From Candidatus Woesearchaeota archaeon (GTDB lineage: Archaea > Nanobdellota > Nanobdellia > Woesearchaeales > GW2011-AR15): 58,334 bases of DNA. The notes under the pieces were generated by a model. It was not told the DNA's origin. It saw nothing but the letters and a program-made list of their open reading frames with translations, and ran no database searches. The stretch lies in the NCBI GenBank assembly GCA_038874655.1, contig JAVZBY010000005.1, forward strand, positions 6,430 to 64,763. Direction: 5' to 3'. Positions 1 through 29,931 of this stretch are shown in pieces (position 1 is the first letter of the stretch; each line of letters begins with the position of its first letter). A program made the translations under genes and the position numbers.

Positions 1-1189
1 TTGCTGTTTCAGAATTATAAAGTGGCATATACACTAATAAAATAACAGGACTTCCTTGATTTATATAATTTTTTAAAGAATCAAAAGAAATATCTTTTGT
101 GCAATATGAATTAATTGAATCATACTTATTTGCATGTTCTACTATTCTAACTGGGTTTGTATATGATCCTATAGAACTTACGCCAATCCAAAGTTTAAAT
201 AAATCATAATTTCTATTATGGAAACCATCTAAAGCCATTTTTAAAGTTGTTGGTCCACATGCAGCAGAACAAGCTACTATGCCAAAATCACACTGTGCAT
301 AAAAAGGAAGGTTTAATTTTTTATTTCCTGGAGGACATGGTAGATTACAACATATGTTAACATCACATTCAACTGAACTTTCACTAAAGTATTTTTTAAC
401 CAATTGTTTATTGCTTCCACAATAAGAGCAATAATTATTTTTATCAGTTTTTGTATTATCTGTGGATTTTATCTCTGAAAATTTATTGTTTTCTGTACTA
501 GTTTGTGCATATAATTGTGTTTTATCTTTTAAAATATCAGATTCAAGTTTTAAATCTAAATCTGTGTTATCTCCACAAAAATTTCTATCAACTTCAAAAT
601 AATTATAAGCACTGTTAAAATTTAATCCTGTGTTTAAAGAATTACAATCTCCTTGTTCTATCATTATATAAGTTGTTGTCAATCCTGTGGATAATGCGCA
701 GCATTTTCCTGTTATTGGTTTCATTAGTTCTGTTACTAATTTATTTTTTGTTTTTGCATAGATTATTAATTTTTGTTCTTTATTATTTGAATCCTCATTA
801 CTAATAAAATAAAAATCATATCCTGGATATGTTGCATTTAAAAAATAAAATGTTTTCTTTATATCTATCATTTTTATATTATTTAGAGATATTTTACAAG
901 ATTTAGTATTGATTAATTTATAACCAAAATATTCATCCTTACAATCAATATTAAAAGCATTTTCAAAGTTATTGAATAAATTATCATAGAAATTTTGTTT
1001 AATAGAGTTTTCAATATAAAAATTAAATTTTTCAGCTTTTTCGTATGTATTCATTATTTGATAGGATGTTGTGCCAATAACTTCATCAAAAGAATTATAT
1101 TTTGTATATAATCTAACTATAATTGTAAAAATAACTATGATAATAATAATCATTAAAAAAACTGAATATTCTGTTGCTTTTTTTTTCAT
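1..1189 (-). CDS. Prepilin-like (class III signal) protein with C-terminal C39-like cysteine peptidase domain; 3' end outside window
   Basis: Not in ORF track; hand-translated open frame from ATG at 1189 to window edge. MKKKA|TEYSVFLMIIIIIVIFTIIV, Cys-rich middle, then LNLPFYAQ...SAACGPTTLKMAL...INQGSPVILLV (C39-like pattern; catalytic Cys codon 257-259). Confidence 0.8.
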   Translation of the reverse strand, partial: MKKKATEYSVFLMIIIIIVIFTIIVRLYTKYNSFDEVIGTTSYQIMNTYEKAEKFNFYIENSIKQNFYDNLFNNFENAFNIDCKDEYFGYKLINTKSCKISLNNIKMIDIKKTFYFLNATYPGYDFYFISNEDSNNKEQKLIIYAKTKNKLVTELMKPITGKCCALSTGLTTTYIMIEQGDCNSLNTGLNFNSAYNYFEVDRNFCGDNTDLDLKLESDILKDKTQLYAQTSTENNKFSEIKSTDNTKTDKNNYCSYCGSNKQLVKKYFSESSVECDVNICCNLPCPPGNKKLNLPFYAQCDFGIVACSAACGPTTLKMALDGFHNRNYDLFKLWIGVSSIGSYTNPVRIVEHANKYDSINSYCTKDISFDSLKNYINQGSPVILLVYMPLYNSETA

Positions 1190-1228
1190 TTTACCTTAAT
1201 GTGTCCTGATAATTAATCAATGTTATTA

Positions 1229-1657
1229 TCAATCAAATAATTTTACATATAAATATTCGTTATTTACAGGAATTTTTGCATTAGCATCAAAATTTTTTAT
1301 AAATTCAGATATTTTTTTACAATTTTCAGATTCATGAAATAATTTGGTTCCTATAGAAAATTTATAACAAATTTTCTCATCAAAAGCATCAAAAAATAGT
1401 TTGTTCAAATAATGTTTAGATTTTGTAAAATCATTTTCATAATAATCTTGTAAAAGTGTATCTGCAAAAGTGCCCTCTTCTGTTGGATATCTAAGAATAT
1501 TTACTAAAATTAGATCATTGTGCAATTTATCTTGATTTTCATTTAGTTTAAATTCAGAGAGTTTTATAAAATTTAAAGATATTACAAATAAAACTATAAA
1601 AATGAATATAATAAAAAAGGATATTAAATCAGCTTCAAGGTATGCATTTTTTTTCAT
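1229..1657 (-). CDS. Prepilin-like protein (class III signal peptide)
   Basis: MKKNA|YLEADLISFFIIFIFIVLFVISL: basic leader, Ala at -1, hydrophobic helix; C-terminal Cys pair. Confidence 0.7.
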   Translation of the reverse strand: MKKNAYLEADLISFFIIFIFIVLFVISLNFIKLSEFKLNENQDKLHNDLILVNILRYPTEEGTFADTLLQDYYENDFTKSKHYLNKLFFDAFDEKICYKFSIGTKLFHESENCKKISEFIKNFDANAKIPVNNEYLYVKLFD

Positions 1658-1712
1658 TTTTTTGATTTATAGTGTGTATTTTTTAATTTATTAAAACAAT
1701 TATTTATTTATA

Positions 1713-2255
1713 CTATTTTTTCCATACCACTTCAATAAATAGTTTTGCAGGGATTAATAATTCATTTTTCTTTAAAAAGATAAGATAATTATTTGAATAG
1801 GAATCATATTTGTTTGAAAATGTTAAAAATTTGGCGTCTTCATAAAATTCTTTATTAAAAAATAATTCTTTTTCTAAGGGATTATTATTTTCATTATATC
1901 TTATAACAACTTTAAAACCGACTTCTTGTTTTAATGCCAAAGACTCTGTACTTTGTTGATTGCTTTTAGAAAAACATTTATCAAGACTTTCTTGATTTAT
2001 TTTGCTAAAATCAAAAACACCAGGATTATTAATAATGCCATCATTATAAACAAAACAATCATTACTATATAATAACCTAGTTGCAATTGTAAAAAATCTT
2101 GCTTTTTTTATATCAAGATTTTCTTTTATAATGTTATTTAATAAATAAACTATTATTGAAATTATTAATAATGTTATAATTACCCTAACAAACCATAAAA
2201 CCCATGTGCCTGTTTCAGCTTTTTTTGCAAATTTTTTCGAAATGATTAGTTTCAT
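1713..2255 (-). CDS. Prepilin-like protein (class III signal peptide)
   Basis: ...KFAKKA|ETGTWVLWFVRVIITLLIISIIVYLL; two Cys in the globular part. Confidence 0.7.
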   Translation of the reverse strand: MKLIISKKFAKKAETGTWVLWFVRVIITLLIISIIVYLLNNIIKENLDIKKARFFTIATRLLYSNDCFVYNDGIINNPGVFDFSKINQESLDKCFSKSNQQSTESLALKQEVGFKVVIRYNENNNPLEKELFFNKEFYEDAKFLTFSNKYDSYSNNYLIFLKKNELLIPAKLFIEVVWKK

Positions 2256-2296
2256 TTTTAAATTTTTTATTTGAATTATTTTATCTAGGATATATA

Positions 2297-2782
2297 TTAT
2301 TTATTTTCTAATGCTTTCTCTCTTAGATTATAATAATTTATTTTTTTATTTGTCTTTATAATTGCCAATTGTATAGGAATTACTTTTTCATTTTTAGTTG
2401 TTTTTTCTATTATTGGATTAAGTTCTGTTTCACTTATTTTAATAGAAGGATTACCTAAGAAAAAAGAATCTAATTTTGCTTGGTCTTTTTTTATTTGTAA
2501 TTTATTTTCATTAAAAATTAAATTATAATCTTGCAATTCTTTATCATAAAAAAAAACAATATCATTATTGCTGCTTAATATAGCTTCATTTATTAAAGAT
2601 AAATCTGTGGCTATATAGTTTCTTTCAAAGTAATCTGAACTAGTTATCATTAAAACAAAAGCCATTAAAGGAACAAATATTACAAAAAAAGCTATAAATA
2701 GATTTATTATTTTTTCCCATAACATTGAAAAAGCATCATGTGATGCTTTTTTTGATTTAAAAATTTTGAATGGCATATTCAT
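2297..2782 (-). CDS. Prepilin-like protein (class III signal peptide)
   Basis: ...KSKKA|SHDAFSMLWEKIINLFIAFFVIFVPLMAFVL. Confidence 0.65.
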   Translation of the reverse strand: MNMPFKIFKSKKASHDAFSMLWEKIINLFIAFFVIFVPLMAFVLMITSSDYFERNYIATDLSLINEAILSSNNDIVFFYDKELQDYNLIFNENKLQIKKDQAKLDSFFLGNPSIKISETELNPIIEKTTKNEKVIPIQLAIIKTNKKINYYNLREKALENK

Positions 2783-3027
2783 AAAAATTTAATGAATCAC
2801 CCCTATATAAAATTATTTATATTTTGTAAGATAATTCATAAATGAGCATAAAAAAAGATCTATAATAAAAAAATTTACTTATTTTTTAGATATTTATTTT
2901 AATATTGTTTTGTAAAAGACATTTTAGATTAGAAAAATATATTAATCAAATATGTAAATATATTTATATCAAACTATATTTGATATTAAATAAAGTAAAA
3001 AAATCTATATCAATTATTAAATAAAAA

Positions 3028-3168
3028 ATGAAAAAAAATAAAAAATCTGAAATCAGTTCTATTTTAAAGATAATCGGAATTATTATATTAGGTGTTATCT
3101 TTTTGATTATATTAAGTTTAATTTTTAAAGAAAAATTAAATCAACTTTTAATAGATACTTTAAAATGA
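3028..3168 (+). CDS. 46-aa minimal pilin-like peptide
   Basis: Below track cut-off; MKKNKKS|EISSILKIIGIIILGVIFLIILSLIFKEKLNQLLIDTLK*; resembles 4272..4493. Confidence 0.65.
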   Translation: MKKNKKSEISSILKIIGIIILGVIFLIILSLIFKEKLNQLLIDTLK

Positions 3169-3217
3169 TAATTAATAATGTCATAATAAAAAAATATAAT
3201 AAATATTTTTTAATTAT

Positions 3218-4321
3218 ATGGGTTTGCACAAACAAAATAAAAAAATGAAAATTATGAAAAATGAACAAAAAAAAGGTGCATTAGTAATTAGTGAAGTAAT
3301 TGGTGCAATATTGGTAATTGCTGTATTCCTAATATTGTTCATAACAACCGGACTTTATAAGATAATCTTAGGTGAATCAGGAAAAGATTTAATGTGCGAA
3401 GGAAGTTTTATAGCAAGTGCATTAACAAGGCCTTTTTTAAATTATGGTAATTCTGTTATAGATCCAAATTGCGCTGTGAATAAAATTACTGTTGTTAATA
3501 ATAAAAAAGATAATATAGAAAATCAATATGTATTACAACAAGATTATAGAAGTACAATATTAGCACAAAGTTTAGATACATATGAAAGAGTAAAAAATTG
3601 GAATAAAAACCAAGAAATTCCAGAAGAAACAAAATTTAGTTATTTTGAGGATTATTCAAGAGAAATTTTTAGTAATGGTGAAAAAATAACCTTAGATAAC
3701 CCAACTATAGAACAAAAAGAATATGTTAGAGGAAGATATAATTTAGATAGATTATTTGCTGAGGAAATGAAAAGATGCTGGAATATTGTTGGACAAGGAG
3801 AATTGCCTTTATTTGACAATTGGTTTACTTTTGTTGATTGTGATAAAAATCAAAATGGAATACAAAATTGTGAAAATATAGAGAAATGGATTTCTGCAAT
3901 AAAGAATGGTAAAATAAAACCAACTGCTACTTTTTGTGTTTTATGCGCAAGAATAAAGTTTGATGATGAAATAAATAATAAATTTAGTGGAGTTGATAAT
4001 GGTTATTATAGCTCTGTTGCAAGATGGATGGGGAATCATCCAATAAGAAATGATAAAAAAGAAAGTTATTATGATTATGTATATAATACTGATAAAATGA
4101 GTTCATTTGCTGAGATGTTTTTTCCAAAATATAGAACGGATAGAGCATATGCTGTTGTTTTCATGAGGATAAATGACCATGGAGGGATAAATTTTTTTAA
4201 AACTTTAGCTGGATTAAATAAATATAAAAATAGTGATGTTTATTATGCTAATATAATTAAGTTGATACCATATGAAGATATATCAAAAGAGTGTGATTAT
4301 CTTGTCGCATCTGAAGTATAA
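3218..4321 (+). CDS. Prepilin-like Cys-containing protein (367 aa; start may be a downstream Met)
   Basis: KNEQKKG|ALVISEVIGAILVIAVFLILFI; Cys motifs MCEGS, EMKRCW, FCVLCARIKF, ECDYL. Confidence 0.75.
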   Translation: MGLHKQNKKMKIMKNEQKKGALVISEVIGAILVIAVFLILFITTGLYKIILGESGKDLMCEGSFIASALTRPFLNYGNSVIDPNCAVNKITVVNNKKDNIENQYVLQQDYRSTILAQSLDTYERVKNWNKNQEIPEETKFSYFEDYSREIFSNGEKITLDNPTIEQKEYVRGRYNLDRLFAEEMKRCWNIVGQGELPLFDNWFTFVDCDKNQNGIQNCENIEKWISAIKNGKIKPTATFCVLCARIKFDDEINNKFSGVDNGYYSSVARWMGNHPIRNDKKESYYDYVYNTDKMSSFAEMFFPKYRTDRAYAVVFMRINDHGGINFFKTLAGLNKYKNSDVYYANIIKLIPYEDISKECDYLVASEV

Positions 4322-4493
4322 AAATATTAATAAAAATTTAAAAAAAAAAATTAAAAAAAATGCAGAAATAAGTATTGAAACTGCAGCAATTTTAATTATT
4401 GCATTAGCATTAGTTGTGGCTGTATTATTAATTGTTTTTAGAAATAAGTTAGTAATGGAAAAATTGCTTTATCTTTTTAGAGGATTAAGATGA
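4272..4493 (+). CDS. Small pilin-like peptide (start uncertain)
   Basis: KKIKKNA|EISIETAAILIIALALVVAVLLIVF with Glu at +5; stop overlaps next ATG (ATGA, 4490-4493). Confidence 0.65.
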   Translation: MKIYQKSVIILSHLKYKNINKNLKKKIKKNAEISIETAAILIIALALVVAVLLIVFRNKLVMEKLLYLFRGLR

Positions 4494-7400
4494 AAAAAGC
4501 AATTATGCTTTCAAGTGTGATTGTTTTAATTATATCAGTTATAGTAATTTTAGTTGCTTTAAATGGTATTTTAGTCTTAACAAAAGTTGGTGAAGAAGCA
4601 AGAGAATTAATTTTTCCTGAAGAAAGTGAATTCTCACCAACTATTTTTGCTCCGAAAAATGTTCAAGAAATAAATGTTGAAAATTCTGTCAAAGCACTTA
4701 TATGTAGTATTAATGCAATTACTTATTTAGACAAAAATAATATTACTGATGAAAAAAAATTTAACGATATTTATAAAGATAAGGAATTTTGGAAAAAAGC
4801 GTGTGGAGATATAAAACCCTCTTATTATACAAAAGAAATGGAAGATAATGAGGAAAATGAAGATGTAGAAAAAAATAGAAATACTGGGAAATTATGTACA
4901 GAGAAGTTAGGTGTTTGCCTAAGTAAAGATGAAAAGGATAAGCAATATTATGTCAATAAAGCACTAGAAGAAAATTTATTATATTATAAGCCTGCTGAAT
5001 ATAACCCCAATAATAAAGATACTTGCCCAGAAGAAAAACCTTATTGTAGATTAGTTTGTGATCAAGGAGGTTATTTTAAAATAGGCGGCTCTTGTAATCC
5101 AGGGAAAAAAGAATGTGCAGGAATTGGTAATGATATGGCTAGTTATTGTTTAGCAACAGGAGTATGGTGTCAAAGAGATTGTTCACCTGGATTTTTACAA
5201 ACAGGAAAATGCTCCGAAGATAAAAATATTGTATATTGCGAAGATAGTAAAAAAGATATTACTGAGGATTTAAAAATTATTGCTAAACAGGTTGAAGCTT
5301 TAGAAGGAATTGATTGTACAGAAGGGAAAGTTTATGGTAGTAGTTGTGTCAAGTGTGCTTATGATATTAATCCGCCATATTTTAAGTGTTATGTTAATAA
5401 TTTTAATTTACCTCAAGAATTTAACAATGAAAAAGGTTTTTTTGATAAATGGATAGCTGGTTTTGGTGATCCTAAGTATTTAATTTATTATGAGGCATTT
5501 CCTGATGGAGAGGATCAATATTGGAAAGCGGATTATGGAACATTAAGTCCTATTGCATTGTATAGCGGAGCTATTTCTGCAGTACTTTTGCCAGTTAATC
5601 CAAATATAATAAGTAAGGCTATTGCAAAGGCTCCTCTTAGTGAAATTATGGAAGAAACTTTTGCAGGTGGAATTATAAAAAGCATATCCAAACAAAGTAG
5701 TAGAATAAAAAATAGATTATTTTTAGCACAATTTCAAAACAAAGAATTAGTATATAAAATAGAGATGATTCAAGAAGCTGCTGAAAAATTTGGAGGAAAA
5801 TTAAATCCTTTTAAAGAATTTGGTGAGATAGATACAAGTCAGTTTATTCCTATATATAAAAAATATATTGATAATACAGGGAAATTAACCAATGAAGAAG
5901 ATTTATTTATAGAGTTAAGTGAAGAAATAAATAGACAATGGTCAAAAAAATATGCTGGAACTTTAACAAAAAGAGAATTAGAACTACAAGCAGATGAATA
6001 TGCAAGTATTTTAGTAGAAGATTTAATAAAACCTACTTTAAATAGTAAAATTGATGTTGCTGCTGCAAGAATTGCTAGAAACTTTGAAATTCCATTAACT
6101 CATTTCTTTGGAAAAGGTGAACTAAGTGAAGAAGCATTAGATACTTTTTTAAACACAGGTGTAAAAAGAGGTGAAGATTTAAATTATATTATAAATAGTG
6201 GTTTATTAAAAAAGGATTTTGATCTTCAAGGTTATCTAAAAAAAGTAAATGATGCATTGGATAAAAATTTAGATCCTGATCTAAGATTTGGGAATGAGAT
6301 AAAGATTATTTTAGAAAATTTAGAAAAAAGAAACAAATTAGATGTTTATGGGAATCTAATATTTACAAAAACACCTTTAGGGATTCTAACTGATCAAGTC
6401 CAAATAAAAAATAAATTAATAAAAATAGGACTGAGTGCATTTAATACAGAACATAGAGCTTTTACACTAATTTTAATTAGTTGGTTAGGTGATTTAATTG
6501 ATAGTGAAAATCAAAAATTATTGCCGCATGGTGTTAATAAAATTGTCTTAAAGACACCCAATATGTTTGGTTATGGTTATGAATATGATTTAAAAAATGC
6601 TAATCCTTATACCATAATTATTAGAACAAAAGGAAAAGATAATGATGCTTTTAAAAGAATGTATTTTGCAAGTCCATGTAAAGCAGATTTAGAAGTTTCT
6701 AAAGTTGAATTTCATCAAATTTTAACAAGTAATTCTTTTTGGCAATCTGATTTAGGGTATAATAATATTAAAAATTATGATATCTATAATTTTGGTTCTG
6801 GAGATACTTTAGTTAAAAAAAACACATTAGGTTATAAAAAAATAGAATATAATTTTAAATTAGAAGAAAAGGTAAATGATGTTAGTAATTATAGGGATGC
6901 ATTGCAAAAATTAAAAGAAATAGATTCCAGTTTTAATGAGAATACAAAATTAAGTTCTATTTTTAGTTATGCAGAAAAAAAATTAAATGAGGGAGATATT
7001 GAAAAAGCATTAAAAGCATATGTTATTTTAGCAAAATATTATCCTTTATATTCTATGGATGAGGATGTCAAAATTTATGAAAAGATAGATAAAATATTGA
7101 CTGAGCCAAATTTATTTTTAAAAATAGAAAAAGATAAATTAAAAGAAATTGCATTTGAAGAATTAAATACATTACAAGAAAGAGGAGAATTTTTTTATAA
7201 ATATATGAATGATGAAAATTGTAAATCTGTTAATAATTATATAAAAAATAATTGTGATGAACAACTTGATAATTTAGAATTTAGTGGTATGTTTGTTGAT
7301 TCTCCATATATAAAATATCTAATGAATAATTTTAAAAATGAATATATTACCGAATTTTGGAATTATTATCTTGCTTCAGAAGAAAAAACAATAAATTATC

Positions 7401-8200
7401 TAACCAATAAGTATAAAGCCTCACTTTTGTACATAAATAACCCTTATAATTATCAAAACAAAAATGATGAAGAAAAAGAAATATGGAAAGAATATTATTC
7501 TGACTATCCAAGTCTTATGCTTAAAGACTATGGTAATTTTAAAAGTGGAAAAATATTAATTCCTACTCACATAAAATATAAAATAAAATTATTAGATGGT
7601 AAAAAAATTCCAGAATATCCTAATTTTATATCATTTTCTAAATTTTATTTACCCATTTATGTAAAATATAAGGAAGATATAAACTTCAAAGATGATAGTG
7701 ATATTGAATTATTTGAAAAAAAAGAGTATTATGAAGACAAAGCAATTGAGACAGAAAAAGAATATTTTTTTGAAAAAGATGATTTAATTAAATGGATTAG
7801 TATTAGTCAAGAGATTCAAAGGAGAGGATTGGTTGATGCATCTTTTGCTGTTAAAATTGTTGATAACCTTGAATTAAAAGATGACACCAAAGAAGTATCT
7901 TTAAGTTCTTGGGGAATAGAAATAAATGCACACCTACACAAAATAAAAGAACCAAACTATTGTTATCAATCTTATGATCCAACTTTAGCAAATATAATTG
8001 GTAGTGTTTCTTTAGTTTCTATGTTTGTAGATGATGTTGCTGGAAGTTTGGCTGCATTTGGTTGTGCTAGCACAGGTGTTGGTGCTACAGCAACAACTGT
8101 TTGTTATAAAGGAGCTGCTGCATTAACAAATTATGCTAGTGCAAAAGGTGTTGAAGCATTACAAAAATTAAGAAAATGGCCTAGTCGTGGGGACATTTGA
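4490..8200 (+). CDS. Giant (1236 aa) prepilin-like, Cys-rich surface protein with Gly/Ala-rich hydrophobic C-terminus
   Basis: MKKA|IMLSSVIVLIISVIVILVAL; Cys-rich aa ~135-300; TPR-like YAEKKLNEGDIEKALKAYVILAKYYP; C-terminal IIGSVSLVSM...GSLAAFGCASTGVGATATTVC. Confidence 0.75.
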   Translation: MKKAIMLSSVIVLIISVIVILVALNGILVLTKVGEEARELIFPEESEFSPTIFAPKNVQEINVENSVKALICSINAITYLDKNNITDEKKFNDIYKDKEFWKKACGDIKPSYYTKEMEDNEENEDVEKNRNTGKLCTEKLGVCLSKDEKDKQYYVNKALEENLLYYKPAEYNPNNKDTCPEEKPYCRLVCDQGGYFKIGGSCNPGKKECAGIGNDMASYCLATGVWCQRDCSPGFLQTGKCSEDKNIVYCEDSKKDITEDLKIIAKQVEALEGIDCTEGKVYGSSCVKCAYDINPPYFKCYVNNFNLPQEFNNEKGFFDKWIAGFGDPKYLIYYEAFPDGEDQYWKADYGTLSPIALYSGAISAVLLPVNPNIISKAIAKAPLSEIMEETFAGGIIKSISKQSSRIKNRLFLAQFQNKELVYKIEMIQEAAEKFGGKLNPFKEFGEIDTSQFIPIYKKYIDNTGKLTNEEDLFIELSEEINRQWSKKYAGTLTKRELELQADEYASILVEDLIKPTLNSKIDVAAARIARNFEIPLTHFFGKGELSEEALDTFLNTGVKRGEDLNYIINSGLLKKDFDLQGYLKKVNDALDKNLDPDLRFGNEIKIILENLEKRNKLDVYGNLIFTKTPLGILTDQVQIKNKLIKIGLSAFNTEHRAFTLILISWLGDLIDSENQKLLPHGVNKIVLKTPNMFGYGYEYDLKNANPYTIIIRTKGKDNDAFKRMYFASPCKADLEVSKVEFHQILTSNSFWQSDLGYNNIKNYDIYNFGSGDTLVKKNTLGYKKIEYNFKLEEKVNDVSNYRDALQKLKEIDSSFNENTKLSSIFSYAEKKLNEGDIEKALKAYVILAKYYPLYSMDEDVKIYEKIDKILTEPNLFLKIEKDKLKEIAFEELNTLQERGEFFYKYMNDENCKSVNNYIKNNCDEQLDNLEFSGMFVDSPYIKYLMNNFKNEYITEFWNYYLASEEKTINYLTNKYKASLLYINNPYNYQNKNDEEKEIWKEYYSDYPSLMLKDYGNFKSGKILIPTHIKYKIKLLDGKKIPEYPNFISFSKFYLPIYVKYKEDINFKDDSDIELFEKKEYYEDKAIETEKEYFFEKDDLIKWISISQEIQRRGLVDASFAVKIVDNLELKDDTKEVSLSSWGIEINAHLHKIKEPNYCYQSYDPTLANIIGSVSLVSMFVDDVAGSLAAFGCASTGVGATATTVCYKGAAALTNYASAKGVEALQKLRKWPSRGDI

Positions 8201-8222
8201 GTATATTATAAAAAATTTAAAA

Positions 8223-8864
8223 TCACAAAAATCTAATAAAAATAGAATGACTATAATCATTATTTTCTATATCTTCTTTTGTAATTTTTCCTACAAAAAT
8301 AGAGCTTAAATGAATTTTATAATTATTCATAAATCTTTCAGGATCATCTATGATTTTTTCCATATAAATCCCTTTTTGAATCTCATTTTTTTCATTGAAA
8401 GAAAACTTTTTTACATATTGATAATTTTTACCCCATATTATATTAGTGTCTGGAATTTGTTTTTTCCAATCTTCATCTAAAAAAATATAAACAACTAAAT
8501 CTTCGTTTTCTTTTTTCTCAAAAATATATGCATCTGGGATATTATCTTTTTTTAATTGCTCTGAAAATCTTATTTTTATTTGGTTGTTTTCTTCGTAAAA
8601 ACTTTTAAAAGGTTTCCCTAAATAAATACCACTATGTATAAAAACAGTGTCTAAATCAAAAGTTTGTTGACCTATATAATTTTGATAAGAAAGCTTATCT
8701 GTTGCTTTATAAACACTAATATTATTTTTTATAATCCAATTTTTTGGATTATTTTTTGAATTTAAATTATATGCTGTGAAAAAGATAATAAATATTATTA
8801 TAATAGATATAAGTAATAAAAGAATAATTTTATTTTTACCTGAAATAAAATTTTTAAATTCCAT
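8223..8864 (-). CDS. Hypothetical protein with N-terminal membrane anchor
   Basis: 213-aa ORF; KNKIILLLLISIIIIFIIFFTAY; no recognised domain. Confidence 0.7.
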   Translation of the reverse strand: MEFKNFISGKNKIILLLLISIIIIFIIFFTAYNLNSKNNPKNWIIKNNISVYKATDKLSYQNYIGQQTFDLDTVFIHSGIYLGKPFKSFYEENNQIKIRFSEQLKKDNIPDAYIFEKKENEDLVVYIFLDEDWKKQIPDTNIIWGKNYQYVKKFSFNEKNEIQKGIYMEKIIDDPERFMNNYKIHLSSIFVGKITKEDIENNDYSHSIFIRFL

Positions 8865-8990
8865 AACAATTAAATAGAAGATTAGTTTTATATAATTTTC
8901 TAAAAAACAAAAAAATTATAAATCAATTATATAATAGAGTTATATACTTATTTACTTTATTGACTTTTTGATACAACTATTTAAGGTGAT

Positions 8991-11636
8991 ATGATGAAAG
9001 AATTTTATGCTGAAAAAAAAGAAGATATTCTAAAGTTTCTAAAAACTAATGAAAATGGTCTAAGTGAAGATGAAGCTAAAGAAAGATTAAAGAAAAATGG
9101 TTTTAATGAATTAGAGGAATTAAATAAAACTTCCATCTTAAAAATGTTTCTTGATCAATTTGCAAATTGGTTGGTGATGTTATTAGTTATAGCAGGTTTT
9201 ATTTCTTTATTTGTCGGTGAACTAAAAGAATCTATTGCTATTTTTGTGATTATCATGCTTAACACTATATTAGGTTTTATACAGGAATATAACACCGATA
9301 AATCAATAAAAGCATTAGAAAAGATGACTGCACCAACTGCAAAAGTAATACGAGATGGAAAAGAAAAAATTATACCTGCAAAAGAGGTTGTTATAGGGGA
9401 TATTGTTTTATTAGAATCTGGTGATGTAGTACCTGCAGATATTAGGTTAATTGAATCTTATGAAATGAGAGTAGATCAATCTATTCTAACAGGTGAAAGT
9501 GTTCCAGCATCAAAAAAAGTTTGCTTATTAAAAAAAGGAACAGCTATTGATAAAATTGATAATATGGTTTTTAGTGGCACTATTGTAATTTCTGGAAAAG
9601 CAAAGGGTATTGTAGTTTCAACTGGAATGAATACAGAATTAGGAAAAATTGCAGAAACAATACAAAAAACAAGTGAAACTGAAACTCCTTTACAAAAAAA
9701 ATTTGAAATTTTATCAAAACAAATAGGTATTATTAGCTTAGTTTTAGTTGGTATTGTTTTCTTTTTAGGTTTAAGTGAAAAAATAGCATTAGCAGAGATT
9801 CTAATAACATCTTTAACATTAATAGTATCTACTGTTCCAAATTCATTGCCTTTAGTTGTAACTTTAGGTTTAACACTTGGCTCACAAAGATTAGCCAAAC
9901 AAAATATGTTGATTAAAAGACTACCTGCTGCAGAAAGTTTAGGTTCTGTAACATATATTTGTACTGATAAAACAGGAACATTGACAAAAAACGAGATAAC
10001 TGTAACTAATATTTTCTTAAATAATAAAGAGATTAAAGTAACTGGCTCTGGATATAAGCCAGAGGGTGATTTTTTAGTTGAGGACAAAAAAGTAGATACA
10101 AAAGAATTTGAGTTATTATTAAAAATTGGGTTTTTTTGCAATAATGCTAAACTAATTAAAGAAAATAATATTTATAAAATTAGAGGAGATCCTACTGAAG
10201 GTTCTTTAATAGTATTAGCAGAGAAAAGTAAATTAGTAAATTCATTTAAAGAACAATATGAAGTAAAAAAAGAATTTTCTTTTGACTCTGATAGAAAAAG
10301 AATGAGTGTTATTGTTTATAACAAAAAAGAAAAACAAGAATACTCTTTTGTAAAAGGTGCAGCGGATATTTTATTAAAATTGTCTGATAAAATTTACGAT
10401 AATGGAAAAGAAAGAAAAATTAGTGAAGAAGACAAAAAGATCTTTGATGAAAAAATAAAATATTATGCTAGAAATTCCTTGAGAGTTTTAGGAATTGCTT
10501 ATAAGAAATATAAAGAAAATGAGAATCCTGAAAACAATTTGACCTTTGTGGGTATTGTAGGAATGATTGATCCTGCTAGAGAAGAAGTTAAAGATGCTAT
10601 CTTAAAATGTAAAACTGCTGGAATAAAAGTTATGATGATAACAGGTGATCATCCATTAACAGCAGAAGCTATTGGAAAAAATATTGGATTAATTGAAAAA
10701 GGAGATATTGTAATGACGGGTGAAGAACTTGAAAAATTATCAGAAAAAGAATTATTAGAAAAGATTGAAAAAATAAGAGTTGTTGCAAGAGCAATGCCTA
10801 TACAAAAACTAAGAATAGTAGAAATATTGCAAAAAAAAGGACATATTGTTGCTATGACTGGAGATGGTGTCAATGATGCACCAGCATTGAAAAAAGCAGA
10901 TATTGGAATAGCTATGGGTATTACTGGAACAGATGTTTCAAAATCTGTTGCTAAAACAATTTTAGTAGATGATAATTTTGCAACAATAGTTAATGCTATA
11001 GAAACTGGAAGAAATATTTATGATTCTTTAATTAGAAGTGCTAGATTTTTCTTATCATGTAATAGTGGAGAAATATTTACAGTTATTATATCTTTAATGT
11101 TGTATTTTCCATTACCATTAACACCACTTCAAATTTTAATAATGAATTTATTAACTGATAATTTTCCAGCAATCGGATTAGGTTTTGAAAAAGCAGAAGA
11201 TAACATAATGACAAGAAAACCTAGAGATCCAAAAGAAAAACCATTGTCTAATAAAATGCTTTTGTCTATATTATTTTTTGGTATCATAATGGCAATTGGA
11301 ACTATTTTTTTATTTAGTTTATATAAGGACACTGATTTAAATAAATCAAGAACAGTTGCATTTACTACATTAGTTATGTTCCAAATGTGGGCTGTAATTA
11401 GTAGCAGAACATTAAGCCCAGATATCAAACATTTAAATTTATTTACAAACAAATGGCTTTTAGGAGGAATTGTTCTAGCTGTTTTATTTCATATAGGTGT
11501 TATTTACATTCCTTTTTTACAAAATATATTTAAGACTGTTCCATTAAGTTTTACAGAATGGCTAATAATCTTAGCAGTTTCAAGCACGGGCTTTATCATA
11601 ATGGAAATTAGTAAATTTTTTACAAAACCTAATTAA
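8991..11636 (+). CDS. Cation-translocating P-type ATPase, P2A (Ca2+/PacL-like) with atypical TM4 motif
   Basis: TGES, DKTGTLT, KGA, TGD, GDGVNDAPAL; TM5 SCNSGE, TM6 NLLTDNFPA; TM4 VPNSLP; AGGTGA SD upstream. Confidence 0.93.
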   Translation: MMKEFYAEKKEDILKFLKTNENGLSEDEAKERLKKNGFNELEELNKTSILKMFLDQFANWLVMLLVIAGFISLFVGELKESIAIFVIIMLNTILGFIQEYNTDKSIKALEKMTAPTAKVIRDGKEKIIPAKEVVIGDIVLLESGDVVPADIRLIESYEMRVDQSILTGESVPASKKVCLLKKGTAIDKIDNMVFSGTIVISGKAKGIVVSTGMNTELGKIAETIQKTSETETPLQKKFEILSKQIGIISLVLVGIVFFLGLSEKIALAEILITSLTLIVSTVPNSLPLVVTLGLTLGSQRLAKQNMLIKRLPAAESLGSVTYICTDKTGTLTKNEITVTNIFLNNKEIKVTGSGYKPEGDFLVEDKKVDTKEFELLLKIGFFCNNAKLIKENNIYKIRGDPTEGSLIVLAEKSKLVNSFKEQYEVKKEFSFDSDRKRMSVIVYNKKEKQEYSFVKGAADILLKLSDKIYDNGKERKISEEDKKIFDEKIKYYARNSLRVLGIAYKKYKENENPENNLTFVGIVGMIDPAREEVKDAILKCKTAGIKVMMITGDHPLTAEAIGKNIGLIEKGDIVMTGEELEKLSEKELLEKIEKIRVVARAMPIQKLRIVEILQKKGHIVAMTGDGVNDAPALKKADIGIAMGITGTDVSKSVAKTILVDDNFATIVNAIETGRNIYDSLIRSARFFLSCNSGEIFTVIISLMLYFPLPLTPLQILIMNLLTDNFPAIGLGFEKAEDNIMTRKPRDPKEKPLSNKMLLSILFFGIIMAIGTIFLFSLYKDTDLNKSRTVAFTTLVMFQMWAVISSRTLSPDIKHLNLFTNKWLLGGIVLAVLFHIGVIYIPFLQNIFKTVPLSFTEWLIILAVSSTGFIIMEISKFFTKPN

Positions 11637-11690
11637 TTTTTATTTTTTATTTAAAAAAATATATAAATACTAATTTTAATACTTATATTG

Positions 11691-12005
11691 ATGAAAAAAA
11701 TTTTGTATAATAAAAAAGGAATTGAAATTTCTCCTATGAGTTTAGCAGTAGCTATAGTTTTATTATTAATTGTAATGGTAATATTATTATTTATATTTGG
11801 TAAATCAAGTAATAACTTTTTCACATTTATAACTGATATTTTTAAACAAACTAAAGGGGAAAAATGTGTAAGTCCTTTTTTACAGAGATATTGTAATGAA
11901 TGTCCTAGTGGAGATTATGCTAAAAAGGATGTCATAAATCCACCTAAAGATGGGTGGAGTGATTGCAATGGTGAATGTATAGAATGTGTGTATAACAAAA
12001 TTTAA
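11691..12005 (+). CDS. Prepilin-like protein with Cys-rich C-terminus
   Basis: YNKKG|IEISPMSLAVAIVLLLIVMVILLFIFG; six Cys in C-terminal half. Confidence 0.75.
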   Translation: MKKILYNKKGIEISPMSLAVAIVLLLIVMVILLFIFGKSSNNFFTFITDIFKQTKGEKCVSPFLQRYCNECPSGDYAKKDVINPPKDGWSDCNGECIECVYNKI

Positions 12006-12102: not shown

Positions 12103-12849
12103 ATGAAATTAGTTTTGGCTGATTCAAAAGCACTAAAAGATAGTGTTTCAATTATTTCTGATTTAGTAAGTGAAGCAAGATTTCATATTACAAAAACATC
12201 TATTGATTTAATTGCTATGGATGCTGCAAATGTTGCTATGGTTATTTTTAAATTACTTAACACTAGTTTTACAGAATATATTGTTGAAAAAGACATAAAA
12301 ATTGCATTAAATTTGAATAATTTAAAAGATGTTTTGAAAAGAGCTGGCTCTAATGATGTCGTTGAAATGGAAGTTGTTGATAATAAATTCAAGATTGTTT
12401 TGAGATCAATTACAACAAGAACATTTTATCTGCCAATACTTGATATGGATGAAAAAGAACAAAAAGAACCTTCTTTGAATTTTCCATTGACTATAAAATT
12501 AAATCCTAGTTCTTTAAATGATGCTATAGAAGACGCTTCAAGTATAAAGGCAGAATCAATTAAATTTATATGTGATAAAAAGAAATTTTCCCTACATGCT
12601 GAAAGTGATTTATCACAAGTAAAAATTGAGATTCCTGCTGACGAAAACACAATAATAACAAAAGACGGTGATGATGTAGTAAAGGCAAAGTTTTCAATTG
12701 AATACTTAAAGAAAATGATACAAGGAAGTAAAGTAGCTAATGAGTTAATAGTTAGATTCAACAATGATTATCCCTTAAGATTAGAGTATAGAGCAACTGA
12801 TAAATTGATGTTAAGTTTTATATTGGCTCCAAGAGTGGATAATGACTAA
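12103..12849 (+). CDS. pcn: PCNA, DNA polymerase sliding clamp
   Basis: AMDAANVAMV, KFSIEYLKKM, DYPLRLEY, FILAPRV; 248 aa; GGAGG SD upstream. Confidence 0.97.
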   Translation: MKLVLADSKALKDSVSIISDLVSEARFHITKTSIDLIAMDAANVAMVIFKLLNTSFTEYIVEKDIKIALNLNNLKDVLKRAGSNDVVEMEVVDNKFKIVLRSITTRTFYLPILDMDEKEQKEPSLNFPLTIKLNPSSLNDAIEDASSIKAESIKFICDKKKFSLHAESDLSQVKIEIPADENTIITKDGDDVVKAKFSIEYLKKMIQGSKVANELIVRFNNDYPLRLEYRATDKLMLSFILAPRVDND

Positions 12850-13437: not shown

Positions 13438-14601
13438 ATGAAAAAAACATTTTTTTTAATCCTATTCATTTTATGTGCTTCATATATTAATGCATACGAC
13501 TTTAAACTAATTCCTAAAATAATTAAAAGCCAAAGTCATCCTGGATATTATTCAAAAATACCCTTAGGTGAAATGGTCGTAAAAGATGGAAAATTAGATT
13601 TTTATGTTCAAAAAGGATATGATTACATAAGTTTTGAAGGAGACTATAACGAAAAAAAGGGAGAACTAAAAGGGATTTTAAAAGTTGCAACAGAATATTC
13701 TGAAAATAAAGCTTACATATTTTATTGTGAGTTTTCTGCTATAATTCAAAAAGATAAAAAAACAACAGAATTTGTTTTTGATGGATCATCTGTTGAAAAA
13801 TGTAATTCAAGAATTGTTTTTGATATACAAAAAAATAGTATGAGCCAAAAAGATTTGTGGTGGCCAGATAATTTAGTTTTTGAAGTAGTAGAAATTGAGG
13901 GATTAGAAGATTCTGGAATAAGGTTTTCAGATATCTCAGGTGAAGTTGAAATTCTTTTGCCTACAGGTTATAACGAAGATGGAGAGCCCTTATTTGAAGA
14001 TGAAGAAGGTTGGAATCATGCTAAACTAGATATGAAATTGCCATATGGAGCAAAAATAAGATTAAAAGAAAGAAGCTCTATAATCCTATCTTTACCAACT
14101 AGCGAACCCTATGAAATGAGAACACCTGAAAATTTATATCCTTATGATGAAACAATTGTAATGCTTCCTTTAAAGCAAAAAAAGGAAAGTATATTAAAGC
14201 TAATGTCTGGTCAGCTTTATAATAATGTTAAAAAAATAATAAAAGATGGAACAATGGATATAGAACTTGGGCAGGCTGTGGCAGGAATTAAAGGAACAAC
14301 TTTTATTTTAGAAGAAGACGGAAAAAAATCAACTATAAAAGTAATAGAAGGAGAAGTTGAATTCAGAAGCAAAATGAATAATCAGAAAGAATTTATAAAA
14401 CAAGGGGAAATGATTACAGCAAATGAAAAAGGATTAAATGAAAAAACAACTTTTTCAATAGAAGAAGAATCTAAAAAATGGAATTATCATAAGGGGATTT
14501 CACCTGTTTTTATCATCTTATCTATGGTTGTATTAGTTTTTATAATTGGTTTTTTATTTATAGGTAAAGTCAAAGTTGCAAAAAATAAGAGACATAATTA
14601 A
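13438..14601 (+). CDS. Exported FecR-domain protein with C-terminal membrane anchor
   Basis: N-terminal signal peptide; AVAGIKGTTFILEEDGKKSTIKVIEGEVEF (FecR core); C-terminal TM with basic tail. Confidence 0.8.
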   Translation: MKKTFFLILFILCASYINAYDFKLIPKIIKSQSHPGYYSKIPLGEMVVKDGKLDFYVQKGYDYISFEGDYNEKKGELKGILKVATEYSENKAYIFYCEFSAIIQKDKKTTEFVFDGSSVEKCNSRIVFDIQKNSMSQKDLWWPDNLVFEVVEIEGLEDSGIRFSDISGEVEILLPTGYNEDGEPLFEDEEGWNHAKLDMKLPYGAKIRLKERSSIILSLPTSEPYEMRTPENLYPYDETIVMLPLKQKKESILKLMSGQLYNNVKKIIKDGTMDIELGQAVAGIKGTTFILEEDGKKSTIKVIEGEVEFRSKMNNQKEFIKQGEMITANEKGLNEKTTFSIEEESKKWNYHKGISPVFIILSMVVLVFIIGFLFIGKVKVAKNKRHN

Positions 14602-28037: not shown

Positions 28038-28706
28038 TTATCTTTGAATATATTTTTTTCCAATTTTTACATTTTTAGGAAAAATAATAATTTCCCTATA
28101 AAATCTTTCTTTACTTACATAAAATCTTTTTTTTTCTATATCTTTAGAAAGAATTGAAAACATTTTTACATTTGAAGATTCCTTATCAATTTTATAAATC
28201 TCTTTATTATGATATATCCATTTATCCCCTTTTAAATAATATGGAAGTGAATATCTTCTTAAAGTTAATTCACCATAAAAATTAAAATAATGTTCATAAT
28301 AACTCATAACTAATTCTTTAATTGTTTTATAAACTGGTTTTCTATCTCTTAATCCTAAAAATTTGCTTTGTGCTAAAGAGCCATATCTATTTTTTTCTTT
28401 ATAAACACAAATAAAATGATCTTCATCTCTAACAGCTTCTAATGTGATTAAAAAATTTTTTATATTATGTATCGATAAAACAAATGATGCAAAAATCGCA
28501 GCTTCTACACAATCAGCTTTTCTTAGTCTTAAAACTTTTAAAACACATAACCTTTTTCCTGTGTTATAATCTAAAGTATTTATATAGTTTTGAATTTTTT
28601 CAGGGGTATTTAATTTTTTCAAAAAATTTATTTCTTTGTATGTAAATTTTTTTTTTAATATAACATCTTTTATCATTTTTATCTTATTAATATAATTTCT
28701 ACTCAT
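28038..28706 (-). CDS. Transglutaminase-like/cysteine-protease-fold protein
   Basis: LNTPEKIQNYI, ADCVEAAIFA, RDEDHFICVY; overlaps upstream permease by 8 nt. Confidence 0.65.
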   Translation of the reverse strand: MSRNYINKIKMIKDVILKKKFTYKEINFLKKLNTPEKIQNYINTLDYNTGKRLCVLKVLRLRKADCVEAAIFASFVLSIHNIKNFLITLEAVRDEDHFICVYKEKNRYGSLAQSKFLGLRDRKPVYKTIKELVMSYYEHYFNFYGELTLRRYSLPYYLKGDKWIYHNKEIYKIDKESSNVKMFSILSKDIEKKRFYVSKERFYREIIIFPKNVKIGKKYIQR

Positions 28707-29931
28707 ATCTTAATGCATCTACGGGCTTTAAATTTGATGCTTGTCTAGAAGGCAATATACCTGAGATACTACCTACAAAAGTAGCAAATAAAATACAACC
28801 TATTGTAAGTTCTAATGGGAATATTGGTTGCAATGATGAATATCCTGAAACTCTTGCTATATGCCCACCTAATGAAGCAACTAAGTATCCTAAAAAAACA
28901 CCTATTATTCCGCCTATAAAACCTAATAATGCACTTTCAACTAAAAATATTTTTAATATTTCTGAATTTCTTGCGCCTATTGCTTTCATTATTCCAATTT
29001 CTTTTGTTCTTTCTAAGACATTTGTATACATTGTATTCATAATATTAACTGCTGCAACTACAACAGAAATAAAAGAAATCAAAATTAAAACACTATTAAT
29101 TATATTTATAATTGAACCAAAAGTTTCAATTAAATCAGCAAATGTTTGAATAAAAAAGTCTTCTTGACCCTCTTTTTGATTTCTATATCTTCTTAATTTA
29201 TCTTGTAGTGTTTCTGCTAATTTTTCAGGATCAATATTTCTTTCACTTCTAATTATTGCAAAACTGTATCTTTCTCTTTTTTCTGGAAACAAAGATAAAA
29301 ATGTTTCCTCATTCATGTAAATTTGTGCATCATCATTTGGATTACCAATTTCACTATAAAAACCAACAACTTCATATTTTTGACCGTTGATTTCTACATT
29401 ATCACCTAATTTTACTGGTTTTGAAAAAATCTTATTTTCAAACTGATAATTATATCCCAAAACAACCTTGTTTTTATCTGTACTTTTTAAATTTCTTCCT
29501 TTATAAACTTCCATGTTTCCTGTTTCTAACATTAGTTGTGATTTATCTGAGTCAAATCCGGATAAAAAAGCAAACTTTCTTTGATTGTTAAACTTTATTT
29601 GAACTGGAGCAATATAAACTCCTAATATTTCTTTTACACCTTGTCTTTTTTCTAAAAAATTAAGTTCTTGTTTTGTCAAAAAGAAATTTTGATCTGTTCC
29701 TGGTGCACCAAAACCTTTTGCTGTTATGAATAATTTATCTGCACCAGATTCATAGGCTAAATTTGTTATGTAATGTTGAATACCTAATCCAAAACTCATT
29801 AAAGCATATACTGCTGCTATTCCAATTAAAATAGATAGAACTGTTAAAAAGCTTCTAATTTTTTTCATATAGATATTTTTAAGTCCATATTTAATGTCTT
29901 CTATAGTCGTATCTATATGTTTTCTAATCAT
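28699..29931 (-). CDS. ABC transporter permease, MacB/FtsX family
   Basis: RSFLTVLSILIGIAAV; NIMNTMYTNVLERTKEIGIMKAIGA; LKPVDALRYE. Confidence 0.95.
   Translation of the reverse strand: MIRKHIDTTIEDIKYGLKNIYMKKIRSFLTVLSILIGIAAVYALMSFGLGIQHYITNLAYESGADKLFITAKGFGAPGTDQNFFLTKQELNFLEKRQGVKEILGVYIAPVQIKFNNQRKFAFLSGFDSDKSQLMLETGNMEVYKGRNLKSTDKNKVVLGYNYQFENKIFSKPVKLGDNVEINGQKYEVVGFYSEIGNPNDDAQIYMNEETFLSLFPEKRERYSFAIIRSERNIDPEKLAETLQDKLRRYRNQKEGQEDFFIQTFADLIETFGSIINIINSVLILISFISVVVAAVNIMNTMYTNVLERTKEIGIMKAIGARNSEILKIFLVESALLGFIGGIIGVFLGYLVASLGGHIARVSGYSSLQPIFPLELTIGCILFATFVGSISGILPSRQASNLKPVDALRYE

Follow-up and report, generated by a model that had tools for sequence, protein, structure and literature searches.

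At the left end of a 58,334-nt stretch of DNA from a Candidatus Woesearchaeota archaeon (the window, G000:C5:6430-64763, in a genome of 1.26 Mb on 17 contigs with 24% G+C and an estimated completeness of 97%) lies a cluster of nine genes whose products begin like type IV pilins. Comparison with relatives suggests that this cluster is an accessory or tip operon of a type IV filament, and that the subunit at its end serves to carry exchangeable murein hydrolases directed against bacteria; we lean towards this reading, with a confidence that is only slightly on the positive side. All nine open reading frames (ORFs) claimed in a preliminary description of the stretch were found at the starts given there, and the two divergent arrays that it placed on either side of a spacer are present. 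The cluster and the genes associated with it are as follows (window coordinates unless another contig position is given; lengths in amino acids, aa; a slash marks the cleavage-type site).

2-1189, minus strand: ORF1, 396 aa, 3′ end open, last gene of the minor-pilin-like row
1229-1657, minus strand: ORF2, 142 aa, minor-pilin-like, N-terminus MKKNA/YLEAD, family A3, 10 loci
1713-2255, minus strand: ORF3, 180 aa, minor-pilin-like, KKA/ETGTWVLWF, family A4
2297-2782, minus strand: ORF4, 161 aa, minor-pilin-like, SKKA/SHDAF, family A5, relatives of 147-343 aa
2783-3027: divergent intergenic spacer between both arrays
3028-3168, plus strand: ORF5, 46 aa, tiny class-III-like protein, hydrophobic helix and short amphipathic tail
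3218-4321, plus strand: ORF6, 367 aa, class-III-like N-terminus, conserved C-terminal domain at ~173-366
4272-4493, plus strand: ORF7, tiny class-III-like protein, KKNA/EISIETAAIL, 73 aa from the listed ATG
4490-8200, plus strand: ORF8, 1236 aa, class-III-like N-terminus
8223-8864, minus strand: p213, single-pass membrane protein, conserved member, not class-III-like
8991-11636, plus strand: P-type ATPase, between p213 and ORF9
11688/11691-12005, plus strand: ORF9, 105/104 aa, small Cys-rich pilin-like protein, NKKG/IEISPMSLAV
G000:C5:2850-3281, left of the window: 143-aa protein, conserved operon member

Some gene ends need comment. Two scaffold gaps lie in the region (C5:6420-6429 and 3997-4008). 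ORF1 is cut by a gap of 10 N just left of the window, beyond which the frame resumes for 71 aa (G000:C5:6205-6417) to a stop codon. That ORF1 and the upstream 732-aa ORF were one gap-broken gene was considered and rejected, as ORF1 ends with these 71 residues and its stop is directly adjoined by the separate start of the next ORF. For ORF6, M13 (window 3254) is the probable start, and its ESM Atlas entry also begins there. The start of ORF7 is uncertain because its relatives measure only 42-58 aa and the 73-aa version overlaps ORF6; its true start may be non-canonical, and its stop overlaps the start of ORF8 in ATGA.

With ORF6 as a single query, 42 of the 301 genomes sampled from this order gave a homologue, a tally that includes one unpublished genome (G208) whose sequence was not used. 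Up to 20 kb around ten of these matches, from ten genomes of nine families, were compared; since the loci were picked via ORF6, its presence in all ten is by construction. BLAST and gene maps gave a recurring order, namely a tiny gene, ORF6, a second tiny gene, the ORF8-like giant, p213, ORF9, the 143-aa gene, ORF4, ORF3, ORF2 and ORF1, with many stop/start overlaps between neighbouring genes, and in several loci (L036, L038 and others) all genes are co-directional. Hence, the divergent arrays and the spacer of the window stem from inversion, in this family, of the ORF4-ORF1 block. p213 adjoins ORF8 in nine of the ten relatives' loci, and the tenth contig ends just after ORF6. In relatives ORF9 directly follows p213 and heads the row 143-ORF4-ORF3-ORF2-ORF1; only in this genome does the P-type ATPase split ORF9 from the cluster, and the position of the ATPase is empty elsewhere.

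On the ORF5 side the row continues in relatives with two or three tandem small Cys-rich pilins (KKAQ-S/G-I/M-S-L/I-N), then four KKAQ/KKSQ minor-pilin-like genes and then a giant protein with a Sec signal; in this genome that second half, with its small and KKAQ/KKSQ minor pilins, sits on contig C9. ORF9 matches its orthologues at an expectation value (E) of 1e-13 and the KKAQSISINTI pilin of L033 at E 1e-5, and by these matches it is a paralogue of the small KKAQ major-type pilins. A blastp search inside the own genome found no paralogues of the cluster proteins. Families were assigned by synteny and single-pass BLAST, and iterative building of hidden Markov models (HMMs) was dropped because it drifted via the shared N-terminal helix. 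Judged from gene order, the cluster in the window is one half of a super-operon conserved in this order, with about 15 pilin-like genes and 15-17 genes in all, so that the proposed synteny check across relatives came out in favour of conservation, in ten loci.

The N-termini had been read as archaeal class III signals, and the pattern fits. A motif was scored when [KR][GAS] preceded, by at most 14 aa, the first 15-residue segment with a mean hydropathy of at least 2.2, and by this rule seven of the nine window ORFs have a strict site. Leaders are 3-12 aa long across the cluster, and a hydrophobic helix of ~20 residues directly follows the cleavage-type site, which in ORF1 is modelled by AlphaFold2 (AF2) as a helix over residues 5-32 with a predicted local distance difference test score (pLDDT) >90. 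To set this against a base rate, ORFs were called over the genome with ATG starts, a minimum of 40 aa and greedy choice by length, which gave 1272 ORFs; an N-terminal hydrophobic segment is present in 346 of them and the motif in 80 of these 346, many of the 80 being pilin clusters with KKAQ or KKSQ sites on contigs C1, C3, C4 and C9. Given 80/346, a run of eight consecutive genes with the motif or a near version of it is therefore far beyond chance.

Moreover, the site is kept in 77 of 85 orthologues from nine pilin-like families and 11 loci, at roughly 15-40% identity, and the eight misses include probable start miscalls from the ATG-first rule. By family, the motif was found for ORF3 in 10/10, ORF4 in 10/10, ORF5 in 7/8, ORF6 in 11/11, ORF7 in 6/8 and ORF9 in 8/8, and in the ORF1 family in 41 of 48; in the ORF4 family the K-[KR]-G site hardly varies at its K and G. 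The p213 family, an internal control from the same operon, has the motif in 4 of 10.

Further evidence comes from the minor-pilin-like row. In hhalign comparisons the ORF2 family aligned with the KKAQ(M/T)EI(M/V)G minor-pilin family at a probability of 92% (E 6.6e-7) over 91 columns, well past the hydrophobic helix, which suggests that it is a distant paralogue of this canonical KKAQ family; with the KKAQLQIMEN family only the hydrophobic helix aligned, at a probability of 49%. Co-assembly, which the preliminary description had proposed to check by complex prediction, was modelled without the membrane helices, using residues 49-161 of ORF4, 42-180 of ORF3, 38-142 of ORF2 and, as the scored partner, 34-165 of the ORF1 N-terminal module. 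The four-chain complex gave interaction scores from aligned errors (ipSAE) of 0.83, 0.83 and 0.85, and the best of three controls gave 0.00. The mark applied to ipSAE is reached by 58 of 80 solved complexes and by 2 of 110 mismatched pairs, a calibration that is only rough for a four-chain job run on our own alignments. At least 65% of contacts recur between runs, and the confident ones are those of the first helices of all four chains, bundled together. Thus, the predictions support binding, and ORF4, ORF3, ORF2 and the ORF1 N-module are predicted to join via their N-proximal helices.

The N-module of ORF1 comprises ~165 residues, with Gly39, Cys83 and Cys98 invariant across proteins at the ORF1 position. 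Its AF2 model has a pLDDT of 76 and a predicted template modelling score (pTM) of 0.57, with helices at 5-32 and 40-76 and then a small sheet; the model of whole ORF1 is poor beyond residue 160. A profile of the N-module matched in 231 of the 301 genomes sampled from the order, including 172 of the 223 rated high-quality, and in 245 of 301 genomes of a phylum-wide sample, in which the proteins from other orders of the class are mostly 233-295 aa long. Unpublished genomes enter these tallies without use of their sequence, seven in the order count (G208, G210, G121, G112, G206, G245, G183) and two in the phylum count (G210, G421). In a library of 1.84 billion proteins from worldwide sources the N-module was found in 2167 cluster representatives at E<=0.001 and in 347 at E<=1e-30, and in all 150 of the 150 matches listed it starts within the first 41 residues.

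What follows the N-module varies. At the ORF1 position of syntenic loci, Pfam finds NlpC/P60 and SLT in both G067 and G236, Peptidase_M23 in G041 and Amidase_2 in G009. A wider set of 48 members was assembled from eight proteins of the synteny loci and the 40 best-scoring matches of the order, leaving out of the 40 those already in the set, two unpublished genomes and two contig-start matches, with G098 replaced by G273. Pfam domains in this set are SLT (13), M23 (10), VanY (3), M15 (2), NlpC/P60 (2), Phage_lysozyme2 (2), SLT_2 (2), Amidase_2 (1), 3D (1), C39_2 (1) and fn3 (3). When 25 of the 48 were scanned singly, ten had a wall-hydrolase domain and 15 had none; in the other 23 a local HMM names nine M23 proteins, and an SLT motif scan, imperfect in that it missed L080, gave eleven candidates, two of which are also among the nine M23 proteins. 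Overall, a wall-hydrolase domain is present in at least 20 of the 48 members and probably in 27-28, and seven of the members without one are shorter than 300 aa, some of them cut by contig ends.

A second, independent sample, the best 115 of the 150 listed worldwide representatives, contained M23 (15), VanY (11), SLT (10), M15 (10), fn3 (8), Amidase_2 (4), M15_3 (3), Lysozyme_like (3), NlpC/P60 (2), CHAP (2), M15_2 (2), Amidase_3 (1), M15_4 (1), Glucosaminidase (1) and 3D (1). The heads include MurNAc-L-Ala amidases and D-Ala-D-Ala peptidases, and enzyme classes other than murein hydrolases were found in neither the 48 members nor the 115 representatives. These domain assignments indicate that the ORF1 N-module is a conserved carrier and that the C-terminal part of the protein is swapped among nine or more murein-hydrolase families.

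In the window itself, Pfam and NCBIfam gave nothing on the nine ORFs and p213 except Peptidase_C39_2 (PF13529) on ORF1, at residues 292-387 (E 6.5e-6, 27.2 bits against a cut-off of 24). This region has a CGPT Cys motif, and the 71-aa piece behind the gap, with the His-bearing end, matches positions 122-143 of the C39_2 model at E 0.014, a putative join across the 10 N. ORF1 had already been said to carry a peptidase; comparison with relatives sharpens this to a cargo slot for murein hydrolases. Pfam found no SLT in this ORF1. The gene beside it (C5:4007-6205, crossing the second gap and going on at C5:3297-3995) encodes a protein with a Sec-like signal and hydrophobic segments in its interior, which also contains an SLT-like region and, at its C-terminus, a HEITH (HExxH) region; a local HMM relates it to the SLT region of the G067 and G236 orthologues at E 4.5e-27, and Pfam SLT was not found in it at E<=0.01. 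In G067 and G236 the ORF1 orthologue is one protein of 1178-1226 aa, and this neighbour corresponds to the last two thirds of it, so that the gene has undergone fission in this genome; relative to these orthologues the NlpC/P60 head is replaced here by a C39-like one.

The cargo also bears on the question of whose wall is cut. Specialised lytic transglycosylases accompany many bacterial trans-envelope machines, and enzymes of the VirB1/BfpH type could serve as a precedent for hydrolases that remodel the archaeon's own wall for passage of the filament. Searches for a Mur ligase, a penicillin-binding protein (PBP) transpeptidase or a gene of the shape, elongation, division and sporulation (SEDS) family found none in this 97% complete genome, and control genomes gave the expected matches. 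Without murein synthesis the substrate must be foreign murein; moreover, the heads span nine or more murein-specific families. Own-wall remodelling was rejected on the absence of murein synthesis genes, and we give it next to no probability. The host implied by the cargo would be a bacterium; the preliminary description names none.

As the preliminary description stated, the window contains no assembly ATPase, TadC or prepilin peptidase, and it had advised looking for the machinery elsewhere in the genome, where the A24 peptidase, T2SSE and T2SSF genes were indeed found on other contigs. One prepilin peptidase A24 (PF01478) is encoded at C11:11322-11690 (E 7.7e-14; gene G000:C11:10797-11720), PF00437 (T2SSE) is over its cut-off in five places, and PF00482 (T2SSF) in six, which form three pairs, each beside an ATPase. 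Hence, none of the three outcomes that the preliminary description regarded as fatal, namely N-termini of Sec or anchor type, a genome without prepilin peptidase or ATPase, and no conserved clustering in relatives, is what we observed. As a separate observation, another pilin cluster lies at G000:C1:260877-278023; it comprises five genes with the class III motif, giants of 1264 and 1209 aa among them, and ends beside a 757-aa T2SSE ATPase; unlike the cluster in the window, it is linked to its own ATPase.

Several observations weigh against a filament with an enzymatic tip. With regard to the signals, ORF2 and ORF7 read KKNA, with N at position -2 and without K or R there, and the +1 residues of the nine window ORFs are T, Y, E, S, E, A, E, I and I, whereas the canonical pilins of the genome have Gln (KKAQ, KKSQ, KKGQ), so that the one A24 peptidase of the genome would have to accept both Gln+1 and non-Gln sites. 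The 143-aa protein of this genome starts MSEATDWS, where the mature part of its relatives would begin (MYKKAQ/ATSWS), and has no leader and no in-frame upstream alternative; a leaderless pilin-like protein of this kind would need no prepilin peptidase. No cluster protein is over threshold for Pfam PF04021 (Class_IIIsignal), for which the best score genome-wide, elsewhere, is 19.4 bits against a cut-off of 23.7, or for PF07790 (Pilin_N), which touches ORF6 at E 0.335. These Pfam tests have little power, because the genome's own canonical KKAQ pilins also fail them. With regard to the machinery, the ten loci from relatives showed no ATPase or platform gene up to 20 kb from the cluster.

The structural points are of the same kind. 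Foldseek against the PDB returned no pilin (best E 0.73 for the N-module and 1.3 for whole ORF1), and PDB profile searches with families A1, A3, A4 and A5 gave nothing significant, with chance-level matches to a geopilin N-terminus (E 0.51) and an archaeal flagellin N-terminus (E 1.8). The helix of the N-module is broken at the invariant Gly39 and is not one alpha-1 helix of ~50 residues, and in the four-chain complex the partner fold is uncertain because the partner pLDDT is 43-46 (<50). With regard to the cargo, the C39_2 match of the window is modest (27 bits), the AF2 model of that part is poor, and we know of no murein activity for a C39_2-like head. Of the 140-370-aa proteins that had been proposed as minor pilins, those of 140-180 aa gained support from the ORF2 hhalign result of 92% and the predicted helix joining, and a pilin fold did not, Foldseek having come back blank. 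The pilin identity of the carrier is argued from the signal motif, synteny and predicted helix bundling, and not from fold.

Taken together, such points could suit ordinary signal-anchored (type II) membrane proteins, in which the Lys stretch follows the positive-inside rule in a genome of 24% G+C and which form a surface complex without any peptidase or filament machine. Such proteins would be expected to lack Pfam pilin or class III matches, structural pilin matches and an adjacent ATPase or platform gene, as is the case here; 23% of the N-terminally anchored ORFs of the genome show [KR][GAS] anyway, and several members deviate from the motif. However, 77 of 85 orthologues retain a small residue behind K/R at the edge of the helix, as against 4 of 10 for p213, the leaders measure only 3-12 aa, KKAQ pilins directly adjoin the cluster in relatives, and the paralogy of ORF2 to a KKAQ family extends beyond the hydrophobic helix. 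We therefore regard simple anchoring as clearly unlikely.

A different alternative accepts the processing and disputes the fibre. The processed proteins could form a bindosome-like or T2SS-like pseudopilus (T2SS, type II secretion system), a short membrane-proximal stalk that holds the hydrolase and the giants at the surface or contact zone, with no long fibre. The class III signal and helix-bundling evidence serves this alternative as well as the filament, and ORF9, the 143-aa protein, ORF4, ORF3, ORF2 and ORF1 give a layout of one major and several minor subunits; moreover, class-III-signal proteins that are not pilins exist, namely the Sulfolobus sugar-binding proteins described in the part of PMC13705601 available. 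Against a stalk, the cluster in relatives is contiguous with two or three tandem small pilins of a kind usually made in bulk, and nothing in the sequence limits filament length. A short stalk is unlikely in our estimate, though it has enough in its favour to be taken seriously.

The remaining genes, ORF5 to ORF8 and p213, are more difficult to read. The nearest ESM Atlas clusters of ORF6 are all unnamed Nanobdellota/Woesearchaeota proteins. ORF8 has no Pfam or NCBIfam match and no usable ESM Atlas match, and no Pfam family was found in seven homologues; it has one strong N-terminal hydrophobic helix, beyond which there are only two weakly hydrophobic stretches, a Cys-rich part at residues 136-300 and conserved cores at ~280-400 and 650-750. 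Its last ~70 residues form a Gly/Ala-rich hydrophobic tail that all ten aligned homologues share, with [KR]WP close to the stop codon, and look like a sorting or docking signal of some kind; PGF-CTERM-type signals have the reverse order of elements. A role of ORF8 in host contact or as an adhesin is conceivable. The tiny proteins ORF5 and ORF7 have an Flp/EpdE-like build with no globular head, ORF5 is conserved immediately before ORF6, and in relatives each tiny gene precedes one large gene (ORF6 or ORF8) with stop and start overlapping.

These features bear on the exact model of the preliminary description, in which the 46- and 73-aa peptides are the filament shaft and the 1236-aa protein delivers a membrane-active effector. 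In favour of the shaft stand the Flp/EpdE-like build of the tiny proteins, the Epd major pilin, which has no globular head according to the available part of PMC13705601, and sub-threshold Flp1_like matches of ORF5 (E 0.21) and ORF9 (E 0.011); in favour of the effector stands the conserved hydrophobic Gly/Ala-rich tail of ORF8. The one-to-one pairing of the tiny genes with ORF6 or ORF8, with overlapping stop and start, speaks against a shaft protein, so that the build of the peptides agrees with that role and their coupling does not. The membrane-active domain finds no support, as the tail hydropathy is only ~1.5 over 19 aa, and no family match, in particular no pore-former or toxin family, was found in ORF8 or its seven homologues. 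We consider this exact model quite improbable; for the shaft, ORF9 and the small Cys-rich KKAQ pilins next to the cluster in relatives are better candidates.

For the preferred reading, a filament operon with a hydrolase carrier at its end, the following mechanism can be proposed. The single A24 peptidase, encoded on another contig, would remove the short Lys-rich leaders after membrane insertion. The 143-aa protein, ORF4, ORF3, ORF2 and ORF1 are predicted to join via the helices behind their hydrophobic segments into a priming or tip complex, beneath which small pilins, with ORF9 and the Cys-rich KKAQ pilins of C9 as candidates, would polymerise, driven by one of the three ATPase-plus-two-platform sets. 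In ORF1 the 165-residue N-module would be the part fixed across the phylum and the C-terminal head the part exchanged, here a putative papain-like C39-type peptidase, and the neighbour gene would supply the SLT-like and HExxH parts that are fused to ORF1 in relatives. Wall-cutting enzymes would then be displayed at the far tip of a pilus, or of a short pseudopilus, for attachment to the peptidoglycan of a bacterium, host or prey, and for opening it locally. ORF5-ORF6-ORF7-ORF8-p213 form a second conserved module of the operon, in which two tiny helix proteins are each coupled to a large one, probably for host contact. A wider proposal is that most Woesearchaeales and related Nanoarchaeia possess a dedicated filament with a tip of four or five minor pilins and a terminal, universal hydrolase carrier, in effect a pilus-borne ‘drill’; we put it forward tentatively, and would not yet expect it to hold.

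Other genes of the window and its surroundings may be noted separately. PCNA lies at 12103-12849, and RadA and RPA are encoded left of the window on the same contig, which marks the organism as an archaeon. A second P-type cation ATPase at 21372-23921 (minus strand) is 33% identical to the one at 8991-11636. Among surface and envelope genes, 38223-41891 (minus strand) encodes a protein of 1222 aa that starts with a signal-like segment and contains six RCC1 repeats (RCC1 E 5.6e-62), probably another large surface protein; 13438-14601 (plus strand) encodes a FecR-domain protein (E 3.9e-10), an envelope protein of bacterial type; and 28038-31157 (minus strand) encodes two tandem MacB-type FtsX permeases with periplasmic core domains, again bacterial-type envelope proteins in an archaeon. 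No RNA sequencing run covering window 1-8900 is listed, the listed runs being DNA runs of hot-spring metagenomes.

We know of no established hosts or means of attachment for the Woesearchaeota and Nanoarchaeota, which hold a large share of archaeal diversity. The cluster joins two strands that have been published separately for these genomes, large murein hydrolases and scattered pilin genes, and turns the statement that such archaea may degrade bacterial walls into specific questions on leader cleavage, complex formation, sacculus lysis and tip position. If the wider proposal is true, the main partners or prey of a very large, uncultured archaeal group would be bacteria rather than archaea, the system would be the first example of an enzymatically armed archaeal pilus, and head type (M23, SLT, amidase, LAS peptidase, papain-like) would track the chemistry of the host wall; we suggest head type as a predictor of host wall type in metagenomes.

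Tip complexes are formed by GspH-I-J-K in the T2SS and by FimU-PilVWX with PilY1 in type IVa pili. The cluster resembles them in having one major-type and four or five minor subunits, the largest of which, with an extra domain, comes last, and in the predicted N-proximal helix association. It differs in that there is no sequence homology or detectable structural homology, in its enzymatic cargo in place of an adhesin or cap, in its archaeal origin and in its unlinked machinery genes. Tip complexes of minor pilins or pseudopilins are also mentioned in the discussion of PMC8179133, in the part of that article available.

The same article describes bacterial modular type IV pilins, such as PilB (vWA module) and PilC (lectin module) of Streptococcus sanguinis, and, in that part, 264 architectures, with mention of a peptidase module (Raynaud et al. 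2021, PMC8179133). Both there and here a small N-terminal module, of pilin type there and putatively so here, bears a grafted functional module that is expected at the filament tip. The proteins studied here are archaeal, their lineage-specific 165-residue carrier is only putatively a pilin module and has no IPR012902-type match, and what is grafted onto it is in every case a murein hydrolase, of a type that changes between orthologues; the main text of PMC8179133 contains neither ‘hydrolase’ nor ‘archaea’.

With regard to the enzymes, large murein-like lytic transglycosylase proteins (fam00969) were reported in Woesearchaeota and Pacearchaeota, for which bacterial hosts were proposed (PMC8204110, 2021), and ‘vampiristic’ Woesearchaeota with GH23 enzymes have been proposed (Vigneron et al. 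2022, PMC9723730), as given in the portions of these papers available. The likeness is close, as the lineage is the same, the idea is that of wall-less DPANN archaea degrading bacterial peptidoglycan, and the ORF1 orthologues of G067 and G236 (1178 and 1226 aa) have SLT. In the text available, both papers treat the enzymes as free-standing and extracellular, and ‘pili’ or ‘pilin’ occurs 0 times in either main text; in contrast, the enzyme described here rides on a conserved class-III-signal carrier whose gene closes a pilin-like operon, and SLT is only one among at least nine interchangeable heads. This window's ORF1, with a C39-like head and no SLT, further differs from fam00969-type proteins. 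Halophilic archaea secrete peptidoglycan hydrolases with peptidoglycan-binding domains that kill bacteria (PMC12352652, text in part), likewise archaeal murein hydrolases aimed at bacteria. Those enzymes are Sec/Tat-secreted, and in the text available the tally covers only Sec and Tat signals, with no occurrence of ‘class III’, ‘pilin’ or ‘type IV’.

With regard to the filament, the archaeal system 1 (Epd/Tad-like), as described in the available part of PMC13705601, has an ATPase and two platform genes, is typical of Nanobdellati and has scattered pilins. The present system shares the ATPase followed by two platform genes, diverse pilins away from the machinery and tiny pilins without a globular head; it differs in having no PF04021 match, and a 15-gene super-operon with a hydrolase-bearing member does not appear in the text available of PMC13705601. 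Episymbiotic Saccharibacteria, which are ultrasmall, use type IV pili to find and bind their bacterial host (PMC9894109 and PMC11623550, abstracts); theirs is a bacterial system, and these abstracts mention no pilin-borne wall hydrolase. In the literature searched no paper ties DPANN murein hydrolases to a pilin operon, and supplementary family tables may list some of the proteins. Thus, DPANN murein hydrolases and modular pilins were already known, and what appears to be new is the pilin-operon context of the hydrolases.

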